From NCBI RefSeq assembly GCF_056746865.1, contig NZ_CM163382.1: a stretch of 64,000 nucleotides of DNA; one strand, 5' to 3'. Below, one piece after another: positions 18,557 through 22,874 of the stretch. The translations under genes and the position numbers were made by a program. The first letter of the stretch is position 1; each line of letters opens with the position of its first letter. Below the pieces are notes generated by a model. It saw only the letters and a program-made list of their open reading frames with translations. It was not told where the DNA came from and made no database searches.

Positions 18557-19684
<1,128 letters not shown>

Positions 19685-20019
19685 TTATGTTGGCGTTTTC
19701 TATTCAGTATAGAAGTCGGAGCGGCTGGGCGAGATGCGGAAGTTCTGGAATGCTTCTTTTTTTTGGTGATGGTGAACTGATTGTGACTGAAGAAGTTTGG
19801 CTACTTTTGCAATGTGACAAGTTATGGCAGAGCTGGCTGGTGGCGAAGAATTTTGACGATTGAGGCATGCAGAAAAATACGGGTTCAGCTTCAGTTGATC
19901 AAATGAGGAGTGAGAAGTCCGAAACAGGACTCACTGTATAAATAAACAGCTATTTTGCTGAAGAAGGGTAAGATAACGGCGGGTGCCTGAAGCTTTCCGG
20001 TTTCAGGTTTACTCTGAGG

Positions 20020-20085
20020 TCTGGAAAGATGAAGCCCCAGGACGATATTTCTATCAACCCTGGGGCTGCCACTCCAAACCCAAAC
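20020..20085 (-). ncRNA. sokE: Putative SokE antisense RNA region
   Basis: Placed by analogy with hok/sok loci, where Sok is antisense to the mok translation-initiation region; no promoter or terminator was resolved, so boundaries are approximate. Confidence 0.3.
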
Positions 20086-20217
20086 AATTTGGATGGTAGT
20101 CCCTTCTTCGCATGGAGGCAATATAAACATGCTGACGAAATATGCCCTTGTGGCTGTCATAGTGCTGTGTTTAACGGTGCTGGGATTTACGCTTCTGGTC
20201 GGAGACTCGCTGTGTGA
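20029..20217 (+). CDS. mokE: MokE, overlapping reading frame needed for hok translation
   Basis: 62-aa ORF starting ATGAAGCCCCAGG upstream of hokE and overlapping it in another frame, as is typical for mok. Confidence 0.55.
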
Positions 20218-20281
20218 GTTTACGGTGAAGGAACGTAATATTGAGTTTAAGGCTGTTCTCGCTTACGAACCGAAGAAGTAG
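20129..20281 (+). CDS. hokE: Hok-family toxin HokE (50 aa), copy 1
   Basis: [50 protein letters not shown], Hok/Gef family. Confidence 0.9.
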
Positions 20282-20302
20282 CCGTTGTGCGGGGAGTAAT
20301 CC

Positions 20303-21641
20303 CATAAGCGCTAACTTAAGGGTTGTGGTATTACGCCTGATATGATTTAACGTGCCGATGAATTACTCTCACGATAACTGGTCAGCAATTCTGGCCCATA
20401 TTGGTAAGCCCGAAGAACTGGATACTTCGGCACGTAATGCCGGGGCTCTAACCCGCCGCCGCGAAATTCGTGATGCTGCAACTCTGCTACGTCTGGGGCT
20501 GGCTTACGGCCCCGGGGGGATGTCATTACGTGAAGTCACTGCATGGGCTCAGCTCCATGACGTTGCAACATTATCTGACGTGGCTCTCCTGAAGCGGCTG
20601 CGGAATGCCGCCGACTGGTTTGGCATACTTGCCGCACAAACACTTGCTGTACGCGCCGCAGTTACGGGTTGTACAAGCGGAAAGAGATTGCGTCTTGTCG
20701 ATGGAACAGCAATCAGTGCGCCCGGGGGCGGCAGCGCTGAATGGCGACTACATATGGGATATGATCCTCATACCTGTCAGTTCACTGATTTTGAGCTAAC
20801 CGACAGCAGAGACGCTGAACGGCTGGACCGATTTGCGCAAACGGCAGACGAGATACGCATTGCTGACCGGGGATTCGGTTCGCGTCCCGAATGTATCCGC
20901 TCACTTGCTTTTGGAGAAGCTGATTATATCGTCCGGGTTCACTGGCGAGGATTGCGCTGGTTAACTGCAGAAGGAATGCGCTTTGACATGATGGGTTTTC
21001 TGCGCGGGCTGGATTGCGGTAAGAACGGTGAAACCACTGTAATGATAGGCAATTCAGGTAATAAAAAAGCCGGAGCTCCTTTTCCGGCACGTCTCATTGC
21101 CGTATCACTTCCTCCCGAAAAAGCATTAATCAGTAAAACCCGACTGCTCAGCGAGAATCGTCGAAAAGGACGAGTAGTTCAGGCGGAAACGCTGGAAGCA
21201 GCGGGCCATGTGCTATTGCTAACATCATTACCGGAAGATGAATATTCAGCAGAGCAAGTGGCTGATTGTTACCGTCTGCGATGGCAAATTGAACTGGCTT
21301 TTAAGCGGCTCAAAAGTTTGCTGCACCTGGATGCTTTGCGTGCAAAGGAACCTGAACTCGCGAAAGCGTGGATATTTGCTAATCTACTCGCCGCATTTTT
21401 AATTGACGACATAATCCAGCCATCGCTGGATTTCCCCCCCAGAAGTGCCGGATCCGAAAAGAAGAACTAACTCGTTGTGGAGAATAACAAAAATGGTCAT
21501 CTGGAGCTTACAGGTGGCCATTCGTGGGACAGTATCCCTGACAGCCTACAAAACGCAATTGAAGAACGCGAGGCATCGTCTTAACGAGGCACCGAGGCGT
21601 CGCATTCTTCAGATGGTTCAACCCTTAAGTTAGCGCTTATG
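20303..21641 (+). mobile_element. IS186 insertion sequence with a 10-bp target site duplication (ggagtaatcc)
   Basis: Terminal inverted repeats cataagcgctaacttaagggttg (20303-) and caacccttaagttagcgcttatg (-21641); flanked by ggagtaatcc at 20293-20302 and 21642-21651; target is the GC-rich palindrome gcggggagtaatccccgc. Confidence 0.9.
20352..21470 (+). CDS. insL: IS186 (IS4-family) transposase
   Basis: 372-aa ORF MPMNYSHDNWSAILAHIGKPEELDTSARNAGALTRRREIRDAATLLRLGLAYGPGGMSLREV... Confidence 0.93.
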   Translation: MPMNYSHDNWSAILAHIGKPEELDTSARNAGALTRRREIRDAATLLRLGLAYGPGGMSLREVTAWAQLHDVATLSDVALLKRLRNAADWFGILAAQTLAVRAAVTGCTSGKRLRLVDGTAISAPGGGSAEWRLHMGYDPHTCQFTDFELTDSRDAERLDRFAQTADEIRIADRGFGSRPECIRSLAFGEADYIVRVHWRGLRWLTAEGMRFDMMGFLRGLDCGKNGETTVMIGNSGNKKAGAPFPARLIAVSLPPEKALISKTRLLSENRRKGRVVQAETLEAAGHVLLLTSLPEDEYSAEQVADCYRLRWQIELAFKRLKSLLHLDALRAKEPELAKAWIFANLLAAFLIDDIIQPSLDFPPRSAGSEKKN

Positions 21642-21765
21642 GGAGTAATCCCCGCATATCCGGTTGTCAGGTCAGGGTGGTAAGGCACCTGCTTTACACT
21701 TTCGCCCGCGGTCAGCAATGGCTGCGGGCGATTTCGTTTTACGAACAATAACGAGCGTTGCCAAC

Positions 21766-22235
21766 AGAAGTCCGAAACAGGACTCGCTGTATAAATAAAC
21801 AGCTATTTTGATAAGGAAGGGTAAGATAACGGCGGGTGCCTGAAGCTTTCCGGTTTCAGGTTTACTCTGAGGTCTGGAAAGATGAAGCCCCAGGAGATAT
21901 TTCTATCAACCCTGGGGCTGCCACTCCAAACCAGACAATTTGGATGGTAGTCCCTTCTTCGCATGGAGGCAATATAAACATGCTGACGAAATATGCCCTT
22001 GTGGCAGTCATAGTGCTGTGTTTAACGGTGCTGGGATTTACGCTTCTGGTCGGAGACTCGCTGTGTGAGTTTACGGTGAAGGAACGTAATATTGAGTTTA
22101 AGGCTGTTCTCGCTTACGAACCGAAGAAGTAGCCGTTGTGCGGGGAGTAATCCCCGCATATCCGGTTGTCAGGTCAGGGTGGTAAGGCACCTGCTTTACA
22201 CTTTCGCCCGCGGTCAGTGATGGCTGCGGGCGAAT
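21766..22235. repeat. hokE locus repeat unit, copy 2 (complete unit between IS186 and entD)
   Basis: Matches copy 1 (19913..20302 plus 21642..21765) apart from a few substitutions and two 1-nt deletions in the mok region; contains an intact copy of the IS186 target palindrome at about 22139-22156. Confidence 0.85.
21980..22132 (+). CDS. hokE: Hok-family toxin HokE, copy 2 (50-aa frame intact; upstream mok frame altered)
   Basis: Identical Hok peptide; in this copy two 1-nt deletions truncate mok to about 22 codons and open an upstream-extended ORF (21836..22132) in the hok frame. Confidence 0.75.
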
Positions 22236-22253
22236 CGTACCAGAAGTTGTCAA

Positions 22254-22874
22254 TTAATCGTGTTGGCACAGCGTTATGACTATCTTTTCTTTTATCTGCC
22301 AGTGCACAGCAAACTGCTCATCCTCTAGTCGAATGATGATCCGCTGTTTATTCCAGCTAATTATCTGATAATCCAGAAAACCTTGAGCGGCCTGTATCTT
22401 GCTTGCCTTAAATGCGCTCTCTTTGGCGGAAAATGCCAGTGTCAGCGCCAGAGAAAAGGTTAAACCGCATTCTGCGAGTCGCTCGTGTTCTGCTGGTGTA
22501 ATAATGTTGTCTGTCAATTCTCTTGCGGTTTGTACAGAGAAAATCTCTTCGATATCAATGCCAATCGGTTGACGAGATACCACGGCTAATGCCGTAGTCC
22601 CGCAGTGGCTAATACTGCCGTATACCTCCGCAGGCCACACAGGTTGGCGTAGCTCGCCGATAGCGGGCACATATTTATAGCCATATTCCCGCAAGGCATA
22701 AACAGCAGCGATTCGTCCAGCTAAATGCTCTGTTTTACGTTTACGTCCAGCGTGTTGCAGTTGTGCGTAGTGTGGCAGCCAGAGTAAATCCTGCTCGCGA
22801 AAACTCGCCGGATCGAACTCAACAAAATGCAGCGTATGTCCGGCAAAGGGGAGGGCGGTATGCGTAGTTTTCAT
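22254..22874 (-). CDS. entD: Phosphopantetheinyl transferase EntD
   Basis: Translation from the internal Met (MKTTHTALPFAGHTLHFVEFDPASFREQDLLWLPHYAQLQHAGRKRKTEHLAGRIAAVYALREYG...) matches EntD; the exact start is ambiguous. Confidence 0.9.
   Translation of the reverse strand: MKTTHTALPFAGHTLHFVEFDPASFREQDLLWLPHYAQLQHAGRKRKTEHLAGRIAAVYALREYGYKYVPAIGELRQPVWPAEVYGSISHCGTTALAVVSRQPIGIDIEEIFSVQTARELTDNIITPAEHERLAECGLTFSLALTLAFSAKESAFKASKIQAAQGFLDYQIISWNKQRIIIRLEDEQFAVHWQIKEKIVITLCQHD

Follow-up and report, generated by a model that had tools for sequence, protein, structure and literature searches.

Chromosomal hok loci close to the one described here are known from several E. coli strains. Those of K-12 have been described as IS-inactivated, and in the AIEC strain NRG857c the pair hok-2.1/hok-2.2 has been described as a duplication of hokE (PMC7232551); hokE has also been reported several times over in strain W (PMC3032704). 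Among Hok genes, 10% lie in islets of two to six (bioRxiv 10.1101/2025.08.07.668861). At the RNA level, the 3′ stem-loop of truncated hok mRNA is required for stability (PMC9841398), and the HokE coding sequence is toxic on overexpression (bioRxiv 10.1101/2025.08.07.668861). The IS-free chromosomal hok loci that have been assayed showed no post-segregational killing (summarised in bioRxiv 10.1101/2025.08.07.668861), and an "intact" locus therefore need not be an active one.

The window analysed here, a 64,000-nucleotide stretch of contig NZ_CM163382.1, carries in its ybdK–entD interval two head-to-tail 468-bp hokE/sokE modules with a repeat period of 502–504 bp. Together they form a chromosomal type I toxin-antitoxin array of two hokE/sokE units, with IS186 in the upstream one. 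Its features, in order, are as follows.

18557–19675, minus strand: ybdK (glutamate-cysteine ligase family 2), left flank (ORF; Pfam GCS2, E 6.5e-98; K-12 annotation)
19913–20302, plus strand: 5′ part of hokE/sokE unit 1, comprising promoter region, leader, hokE and left hairpin half (98.0% identical to 21766–22154)
19978–19988, plus strand: predicted 5′ end of the unit 1 hokE mRNA, tac element GGCGGGUGCCU (RF01794 match from 19981; its unit 2 counterpart has the same sequence and pairs with fbi in the predicted fold)
20025–20085, minus strand: sokE-1 antisense RNA, the antitoxin (coordinates transferred by alignment from the K-12 sokE annotation)
20093–20121, minus strand: candidate sokE-1 promoter, −35 TTGCCT, 17-nt spacer, −10 TACCAT (sequence inspection)
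20129–20281, plus strand: hokE-1 toxin ORF, 50 aa (ORF; HOK_GEF; candidate in-frame mokE ATG at 20093)
20293–20302 (left) and 21642–21651 (right): 10-bp IS186 target duplication GGAGTAATCC
20303–21641, plus strand: IS186 (alias IS421), 1339 bp, with 23-bp terminal inverted repeats
20358–21470: transposase gene insL within IS186 (Pfam DDE_Tnp_1, PF01609, E 1.6e-26)
21642–21731, plus strand: 3′ part of unit 1, displaced by the IS (97.8% identical to 22143–22233), holding the right duplication copy, the right hairpin half, fbi at 21683–21693 and the terminator stem at 21702–21731
21732–21765, plus strand: 34-nt inter-unit linker, opening with the terminator T-run TTTCGTTTT
21766–22233, plus strand: hokE/sokE unit 2, uninterrupted (matches 118UI unit 2 at 100%; sok match at 21834–21988, 83.7 bits)
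21878–21936, minus strand: sokE-2 antisense RNA (homology to sokE-1; fold)
21980–22132, plus strand: hokE-2 toxin ORF, 50 aa (ORF; HOK_GEF; candidate in-frame mokE start at 21944)
22137–22160, plus strand: intact 3′ hairpin of unit 2, a vacant G4-N6-C4 target for IS186 (−21.9 kcal/mol, z −5.7)
22185–22195, plus strand: fbi element AGGCACCUGCU of unit 2 (11 bp with 21831–21841 in the minimum free energy fold)
22203–22234, plus strand: terminal stem-loop of unit 2, a terminator stem without a T-run (−27.4 kcal/mol; tail AATCGTACC)
22254–22874, minus strand: entD (phosphopantetheinyl transferase), right flank, convergent with hokE (Pfam 4PPT_N and ACPS; K-12 entD match)

Alignment of the two units over 468 positions shows 10 differences, made up of 8 substitutions and 2 indels. 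Six of the substitutions and both indels fall in the 391-bp 5′ repeat (19913–20303 against 21766–22154, 98.0% identity), and the 91-bp 3′ repeat (21641–21731 against 22143–22233) is 97.8% identical. HokE-1 and HokE-2 are identical proteins, and both match Pfam HOK_GEF (PF01848), scoring 34 bits where the cutoff is 22; the two Rfam sok (RF01794) matches score 82.4 and 83.7 bits, with a gathering score of 59. The original prediction, made from the letters alone, had placed two 50-aa hokE genes at exactly these coordinates, and both ORFs are borne out. Its two tandem units of about 490 bp are likewise present, although with the longer period given above, and IS186 does separate the two hokE genes but lies inside unit 1 rather than between units.

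Each unit encodes the membrane toxin HokE (50 aa), for which an upstream start in the same frame probably serves as mokE. It is also predicted to specify an approximately 400-nt hokE mRNA closed by pairing of its 5′ tac and 3′ fbi elements, and a SokE antisense RNA of about 60 nt whose promoter would overlap the hokE ribosome-binding site. The transcript ends, sokE promoter and mokE start were assigned by homology and folding alone. In the predicted minimum free energy fold of 21830–22236 (unit 2), an 11-bp helix between 21831–21841 and 22185–22195 closes the transcript (z −8.67); the corresponding tac and fbi partners of unit 1 are separated by IS186. The predicted sokE-1 fold consists of a single-stranded 5′ tail, a hairpin and a U-rich end, and sokE-2 has one substitution and two single-nucleotide indels relative to sokE-1; the indels, at 20043 and about 20081, tell the units apart. 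A promoter scan reported no site at its threshold. The candidate sokE-1 promoter was positioned manually, with the sokE 5′ end annotated in K-12, 7 nt downstream of it, as the reference point. It matches 8 of 12 consensus positions, which is under that threshold, and it overlaps the hokE Shine-Dalgarno sequence.

The in-frame ATG located 36 nt upstream of hokE (20093 and 21944) is kept in all 12 units aligned there and is a candidate mokE start, in parallel with the annotated mokC, which extends hokC in frame. Another ATG, at 20029 and 21882, would give a truncated 22-codon mok in unit 2 and a mok-hok fusion in K-12. It was rejected as the mok start because the annotated mokC extends hokC in frame, because no ATG occupies that position in the leaders of R1 and hokC, and because the two 1-nt indels fall within non-coding leader, in a bulge and a loop. 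Variability within the unit is highest in the 10 nt that form the SokE recognition loop, whose stem is preserved by compensatory changes. This loop differs between co-resident units in six of the six arrays examined.

IS186 is inserted in a GC-rich hairpin, starting 21 nt past the first hokE stop. The position of the element, the palindromic target and the 10-bp duplication were all as originally predicted from the sequence. The element differs from K-12 IS186B at 1 of 1339 nt (99.93% identity). The target duplication can also be read as up to 12 bp when the terminal C and G are counted as target. When IS186 and one copy of the duplication are removed, the window is identical to strain 118UI over 3,121 bp (100%), and IS186 therefore entered an array that already existed. 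The 5′ part of unit 1 (19913–20302) is itself 100% identical to unit 1 of 118UI, and queries for the IS-free junction and for the last unit both match E. coli 042.

In the lineage of this window, the element transposed into the G4-N6-C4 hairpin just beyond the stop codon of the upstream hokE, an event that destroyed the 3′ hairpin of unit 1 and pushed its fbi and terminator 1.35 kb from the coding part. The hairpin that can form at the left IS junction has a predicted stability of −11.9 kcal/mol, compared with −21.9 kcal/mol for the intact one, and to the right of the IS (21642–21765) lie the last 90 bp of unit 1, with fbi and terminator, followed by the 34-bp linker. Because the hairpin is lost and the fbi and terminator are displaced, unit 1 should no longer yield a correctly folded, stable hokE mRNA. 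In unit 2, the palindrome gcggggagtaatccccgc / GCGGGGAGTAATCCCCGC is intact at 22140–22157; it had been expected at about 22139–22156 after the second unit, and it is present but lies within that unit, which ends at 22233. Unit 2 and both sokE genes retain every recognisable element, and unit 2 may be active. The terminator scan reported a site with a T-run in unit 1 (hairpin −26.1 kcal/mol) and did not report the terminal stem-loop of unit 2 as a terminator; termination of the last unit, which has no U-tract after its hairpin, is uncertain.

Repeats that adjoin a multicopy IS element are typically prone to misassembly, and the second unit could in principle be a mis-expanded repeat. However, the 2,801-bp locus has exact matches in four complete-genome records, two of which are perhaps the same genome, and IS186 lies directly upstream of a unit junction in 100 of 5,426 complete E. 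coli genomes; on these grounds misassembly, which the original prediction had named as a way for the duplication to be false, is not credible. Since the two units can also be told apart by their 8 substitutions and 2 indels over 468 nt, and since an IS-free counterpart exists in 118UI, we give an assembly artefact practically no chance.

The two-unit arrangement with IS186 is instead a common and already documented variant of the K-12 locus. The unit-to-unit junction is found in at least 546 of the 5,426 genomes, at 81–100% identity. Arrays of two or three units exist with zero to two copies of IS186, and such two- and three-unit arrays were seen in O157:H7, 118UI, 2013C-4282 and WP5-S18. The hairpin is occupied by IS186 in about 47% of genomes, in the K-12 orientation in about 1,697 and in the opposite orientation in 842, where all genome counts are megablast coverage thresholds rather than per-genome parses and come from phylogenetically non-independent genomes. 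In some arrays two units each hold an IS186, the two copies facing opposite ways. A composite query for arrays with an uninterrupted upstream unit was discarded, since it joins non-colinear pieces and 2,460 genomes pass it. A contig scan for outgroup species with a 23-nt pattern from the conserved leader returned a two-unit array in Escherichia sp. MOD1-EC7003 and one chance match in Paenibacillus, neither of them informative on outgroup polarity.

In MG1655 a single hokE is accompanied by IS186B, whose insertion site, orientation and target duplication match those in the window, and entD follows 107 bp after the IS; the order sokE, hokE, IS186B, entD is annotated likewise in K-12. The original prediction had described this layout correctly, with a single hokE upstream of IS186 and entD within about 100 bp, and the K-12 alignment accordingly gave no two-copy arrangement there. 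It had also called the second unit extra. That unit is indeed absent from K-12, but the polarity is probably the reverse, with the single-copy state derived. The head-to-tail repeats, their 98% identity and the single unit of K-12 are what a recent, strain-specific tandem duplication would produce, whether before or after the arrival of IS186. Yet the window units differ from each other at 10 of 468 positions and from the K-12 unit at 9–10 of 468, so that the copies are no closer to each other than to the K-12 orthologue. Nor does the junction simply join the end of the segment to its start, as it includes a 34-nt linker that is missing from single-copy alleles. Furthermore, 118UI holds both haplotypes in the same order without an IS, each window unit being identical to its positional counterpart there, and the 546 genomes with a junction carry diverged linker alleles. 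A recent origin for the second copy is thus very improbable and, to judge from these comparisons, the duplication is neither recent nor strain-specific.

The linker is 34 nt long in all 10 junctions from 8 loci, with alleles that differ by up to about 20% between arrays, and units within an array differ at 8–25 of 468 positions, as much as units of different strains. The linker has no significant similarity to either flank, and its derivation from a decayed entD 3′ end was rejected by global alignment against shuffled controls (p = 0.18–0.66). Because it is absent from single-copy alleles, single-copy loci such as that of K-12 can derive from arrays by unequal crossover, whereas arrays cannot be derived from a present single-copy locus by simple duplication. 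The most likely origin of single-copy alleles such as that of K-12 is therefore unequal crossover between units. Copy number at this locus, from one to three units per array, is an old polymorphism of E. coli. Taken as a whole, an old two-unit hokE/sokE array in which IS186, in the hairpin of the upstream unit, disables unit 1 and leaves unit 2 complete is very likely the correct explanation of the locus.

IS186 targets consist of a G-run, a short spacer and a C-run, with a duplication of 10 bp or longer. Hot-spot insertion of IS186 was reportedly described by SaiSree and colleagues in 2001, with the lon promoter as a case. Unit 2 and 118UI both have the intact target GGGGAGTAATCCCC, and the unit 2 hairpin is the only site of at least four G, 3–6 nt and at least four C remaining in the 64-kb window. 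The hokE 3′ hairpin is a preferred IS186 target. Across E. coli it has been struck many times over, with the element in either orientation and in more than one unit of the same array.

The identical site, orientation and duplication in K-12 could also mean that a single ancient insertion was inherited jointly, the K-12 allele having arisen by recombination of the 91-bp post-hairpin segments with deletion of unit 2; the K-12 segment after the IS does carry a terminator loop (GTGATGG) and downstream sequence of the unit 2 type. However, the flanks of the window and K-12 are 1.5–4.4% divergent whereas the IS differs by 0.07%, and the insertion is on this basis probably independent of the K-12 event. 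The K-12 unit is moreover equally distant from window units 1 and 2, the window allele is the 118UI allele plus a clean insertion, both orientations and several units of one array have been struck, and IS186 is known for hot-spot insertion, all of which make joint inheritance improbable. The window and K-12 might still share the IS through a short recombination tract, less than 148 bp on the left and less than 36 bp on the right. K-12 and ST540 have identical units with IS186 in opposite orientation, and some of the opposite-orientation alleles could have arisen by inversion of the element in place.

The hairpin needed at the hok mRNA 3′ end is itself the preferred IS186 target. Going beyond repeated insertion, hokE arrays and IS186 might take part in a recurrent cycle in which units are knocked out singly, their number shifts by unequal crossover and SokE loops are kept distinct, so that each unit might keep its own cognate antitoxin. 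We regard this proposal as speculative and rather unlikely; if true, IS occupancy and loop divergence would be shaped by selection, beyond target preference and drift.

There is a substantial chance, although we lean against it, that both units are inert relics, the structurally intact unit 2 giving neither toxin expression nor killing and the IS insertion being phenotypically neutral. The last unit, with no terminator U-tract, would fit such a state. On the other hand, the entire 468-nt unit, including its non-coding RNA elements, is conserved at 95–98% while the adjacent linker varies by up to about 20% between arrays, the stem of the SokE target is maintained by compensatory changes, and overexpressed HokE coding sequence is toxic (bioRxiv 10.1101/2025.08.07.668861). 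Together, these observations suggest selection on the RNA architecture.

In practice our analysis serves mostly annotation hygiene. Many E. coli have two or three hokE units, which makes K-12 a poor guide to this locus, and the statement that hokE is inactivated by IS186 fails for strains with an intact neighbouring unit. In thermal-stress evolution lines of E. coli, deletions starting from hokE removed the fep/ent operons (PMC4557228), and the IS186 described here, adjoining the enterobactin (ent/fep) cluster, may act as an endpoint for rearrangements. The occupancy figures are a small and possibly useful addition: about half of complete genomes have IS186 in the hairpin, either orientation occurs, and separate units of one array can be hit. 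Our understanding of the toxin-antitoxin module and of IS186 is unchanged.

Compared with known systems, the K-12 hokE/sokE locus (b4415, b4835) with IS186B resembles the window in its ybdK–entD position, its module, and the site, orientation and 10-bp duplication of its IS, and the lesion in unit 1 is the same as that regarded as inactivating hokE of K-12. K-12 differs in having a single unit and no 34-nt linker, in a haplotype 9–10 of 468 positions from each window unit, and at HokE residue 8 (Ala8 in K-12, Val8 in the window). The hokE array of 118UI is the window allele base for base, minus IS186. The arrays of NRG857c (hok-2.1/hok-2.2), 118UI, 042 and O157:H7 likewise have head-to-tail units at this locus, spaced by about 503 bp, but they carry no IS186, whereas in the window IS186 occupies the upstream unit. 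Plasmid R1 hok/sok, the archetype of the family, shares the Hok/Gef toxin, the cis-antisense Sok, the tac/fbi closure and a stable stem-loop 3′ of the toxin ORF. The window module differs from it in being chromosomal and arrayed and in its mok, which is seemingly an in-frame extension (as for mokC) rather than the out-of-frame overlap of R1. In contrast to R1, killing has not been demonstrated for chromosomal hok loci (bioRxiv 10.1101/2025.08.07.668861). In hokC of K-12, IS186A sits in the homologous hairpin GCGGGGAGTGATCCCCGC. This site and the lon promoter of E. coli B are IS186 hot spots that share with the window a G-run/C-run target, a 10-bp duplication and use of both orientations; unlike at lon, the sequence struck in the window is a toxin mRNA's 3′ hairpin, of which an array holds two copies.

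The original prediction described two tandem hokE units, each with a 50-aa gene, and the sequence matches that description: positions 19913-20303 and 21766-22154 are 98.0% identical over 391 bp, and 21641-21731 and 22143-22233 are 97.8% identical. The repeat period is 502-504 bp, longer than the unit size of about 490 bp originally proposed. The placement of IS186 in the palindrome of the first unit, about 21 bp past the hokE stop and with a 10-bp target duplication, is likewise observed (the element starts 21 nt past the stop codon), although it lies inside unit 1, the last 90 bp of which, together with a 34-bp linker, stand to the right of IS186. An intact palindrome is present in the second unit, one base from the predicted coordinates. 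The HokE-1 and HokE-2 proteins are identical to each other. The features of the locus are as follows.

20129-20281: hokE-1 ORF, 50 aa, Pfam HOK_GEF match
21980-22132: hokE-2 ORF, 50 aa, Pfam HOK_GEF match
20303-21641: IS186, 1339 bp, with 23-bp terminal inverted repeats and a DDE transposase
20293-20302 and 21642-21651: 10-bp direct duplication GGAGTAATCC flanking IS186
22140-22157: uninterrupted palindrome GCGGGGAGTAATCCCCGC (IS186 target) in unit 2
20025-20085, minus strand: SokE-1, transferred from the K-12 sokE annotation
21878-21936, minus strand: SokE-2, transferred from the K-12 sokE annotation
20076-20085 and 21929-21936: variable SokE tail/target loop, with a 1-nt indel at 20043

In its target form the hokE hairpin reads G4-N6-C4, which fits the IS186 target consensus reportedly published by SaiSree et al. 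in 2001. A search of the whole 64-kb window for the pattern G≥4 N3-6 C≥4 returned the unit-2 hairpin (22142-22155) as the sole free site, the other instance being the hokE site that already holds IS186. At K-12 hokC, IS186A occupies the homologous hairpin with the duplication GGAGTGATCC.

The gene order in K-12 MG1655 is ybdK, sokE, hokE, IS186B, entD, with a single hokE unit and entD starting 107 bp past the IS; the statement that K-12 has one hokE before IS186 and entD close after was therefore right, and the interpretation of an array carrying IS186 in its first unit and an extra unit relative to K-12 is supported. Aligned with K-12, the window matches continuously from the left flank across IS186 as far as 21731 and again from 22143, and the K-12 unit is equidistant from both window units (9-10 of 468 positions). 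Once IS186 and one copy of the duplication are taken out, the window sequence is 100% identical to strain 118UI over 3,121 bp; the insertion was therefore a clean event into an already existing two-unit allele. Site, orientation and duplication are the same in the window and K-12, and recombination over a very short tract may have transferred the IS. However, the IS differs by 0.07% (1 of 1339 positions relative to IS186B), whereas divergence is 3.2% in the left flank, 1.5% in the unit and 4.4% in the post-IS segment, and the simplest reading is that the insertions were independent, at a hot spot.

Orientation of the IS varies elsewhere. With IS186 removed, the K-12 and ST540 hokE units show 0 differences in 468 positions, yet their IS orientations are opposite, which could reflect separate insertions into one haplotype or in-place inversion; the ST540 duplication copies differ by 1 nt (GGAGTAATCC vs GGAGCAATCC). 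In unit 1 of the two-unit array of GPEC403-625 (NZ_CM142769.1; locus coordinates 870-894 and 2232-2256), the left duplication copy GGATTACTCC reads as the reverse complement of its right-hand counterpart GGAGTAATCC, so that only one side of the hairpin has a flipped loop. This suggests that recombination took place across the 38-nt inverted arms (IS ends plus palindrome), or that an inversion occurred in place.

Both leaders exceed the gathering score of the Rfam sok model RF01794 (82.4 and 83.7 bits vs 59), and both SokE RNAs are predicted to form a hairpin preceded by an unpaired 5' tail and followed by a U-rich end. A candidate weak sokE promoter (TTGCCT, 17 nt, TACCAT), by our reading, lies 7 nt upstream of the sokE 5' end, where it overlaps the hokE Shine-Dalgarno sequence; it fell below the threshold of the promoter scan. 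The predicted fold of the unit-2 transcript (21830-22236; z -8.67) is closed by 11 bp pairing the 5' end GGCGGGUGCCU with AGGCACCUGCU at 22185-22195, which is the tac/fbi closure described for R1 hok mRNA (PMC9841398). Immediately 3' of the hokE ORF, the palindrome hairpin (-21.9 kcal/mol by folding) takes the position where hok mRNA has the 3' stem-loop that shields its processed, active form (PMC9841398), and a second strong hairpin forms the unit end. The annotated mokC extends hokC in frame at the N terminus, and by analogy mokE likely starts at the conserved in-frame ATG that precedes hokE by 36 nt. RefSeq records carry a "hypothetical protein" of ~89 aa, often frameshift-flagged, antisense to each hok leader (19891-20160 and 21803-22011 in the window, minus strand), which is probably not a real gene but a false call across the hok/sok RNA region. 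Between entD and fepA, 22933-23039 matches Rfam ES036/CssrF (above gathering score) and naRNA4 (below gathering score), and these matches look like REP-type repeats.

IS186 divides the unit-1 hairpin, and the fold at the left junction (-11.9 kcal/mol, z -1.6) is no better than that of shuffled sequence. The unit-1 fbi element and terminator are displaced 1.35 kb downstream of the coding part, and this terminator, with a proper T-run, now stands between IS186 and unit 2. Transcripts of unit 1 would enter the IS without their own 3' hairpin or closing helix; PMC7232551, citing Pedersen & Gerdes 1999, regards the same lesion as inactivating K-12 hokE. Unit 2 keeps all of the unit elements described above, as predicted from sequence and folding. 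According to the summary in bioRxiv 10.1101/2025.08.07.668861, IS-free chromosomal hok loci tested earlier gave no post-segregational killing.

Units that share an array differ at 8-25 of 468 positions, at least as much as units from different strains, and a neighbour-joining tree groups units partly by position (positional orthology) and not by genome. The inter-unit linkers are exactly 34 nt in 10 of 10 examined and mutually homologous, those of homologous type differing by up to ~20% and one linker being far more diverged. The linker is missing from single-copy loci, and its comparison with both flanks gave no significant similarity and no detectable source. Because an array minus one 502-bp period is exactly the single-copy arrangement, and duplication of today's single-copy locus cannot yield the linker, we infer that single-copy alleles, that of K-12 among them, descend from arrays, copy number shifting by unequal crossover. 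In all arrays the linker (21732-21765 in the window) bears the upstream unit's terminator U-tract, and the last unit lacks one. In WP5-S18-ESBL-09 (2044 onward in its locus) and Escherichia sp. MOD1-EC7003 (9250 onward), the last hokE unit is followed on the right by an SDR-oxidoreductase region in place of entD; the breakpoint lies immediately after the terminator stem GCGGGCGA, exactly where units end. A 23-nt exact match to the hokE-leader pattern on a Paenibacillus radicis contig (4538-4560) has dissimilar surroundings and was discarded as a chance match, not a hok locus.

A search of 5,426 complete E. coli genomes found the 2,801-bp locus at 100% identity in four records (strains 3347558 and 98232 once each, and CB6886 in what appears to be a double deposit), IS186 followed by a unit-to-unit junction in 100 genomes, and the junction itself (81-100% identity) in at least 546. 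IS-free two-unit arrays occur in O157:H7 and 118UI and a three-unit array in 2013C-4282; further genomes have two units, both with IS186, or three, the first and third with IS186. The hokE hairpin holds IS186 in the K-12 orientation in ~1,697 genomes and in the opposite orientation in 842, and 2,898 have an uninterrupted last unit, so ~47% of genomes are occupied, with counts set by coverage thresholds and genomes that are phylogenetically non-independent. A hokE duplication is on record for NRG857c (PMC7232551) and multiple hokE for strain W (PMC3032704), ~10% of Hok genes lie in islets of 2-6 (bioRxiv 10.1101/2025.08.07.668861), and in public genomes PGAP annotation already shows the arrangement, as two hokE genes plus an IS421-family transposase.

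Of all 10-nt stretches across 18 hokE units, two tie as the most variable (6 variable columns each), and one of these is the SokE 5' tail/target-hairpin loop; the target-hairpin stem shows compensatory changes (CCAAA/TTTGG vs CCGAG/CTCGG), and co-resident units carry different loop variants in six of six arrays examined. This divergence could reflect antitoxin specificity, but the pattern is equally expected if the loop is simply free to vary, since one DNA sequence is the template for both RNAs. The IS186 occupancy figures and the pattern of SokE-loop variability are the only modestly new points; otherwise the feature is ordinary, combining a known toxin-antitoxin module, a known kind of array, a known IS and a known insertion site.
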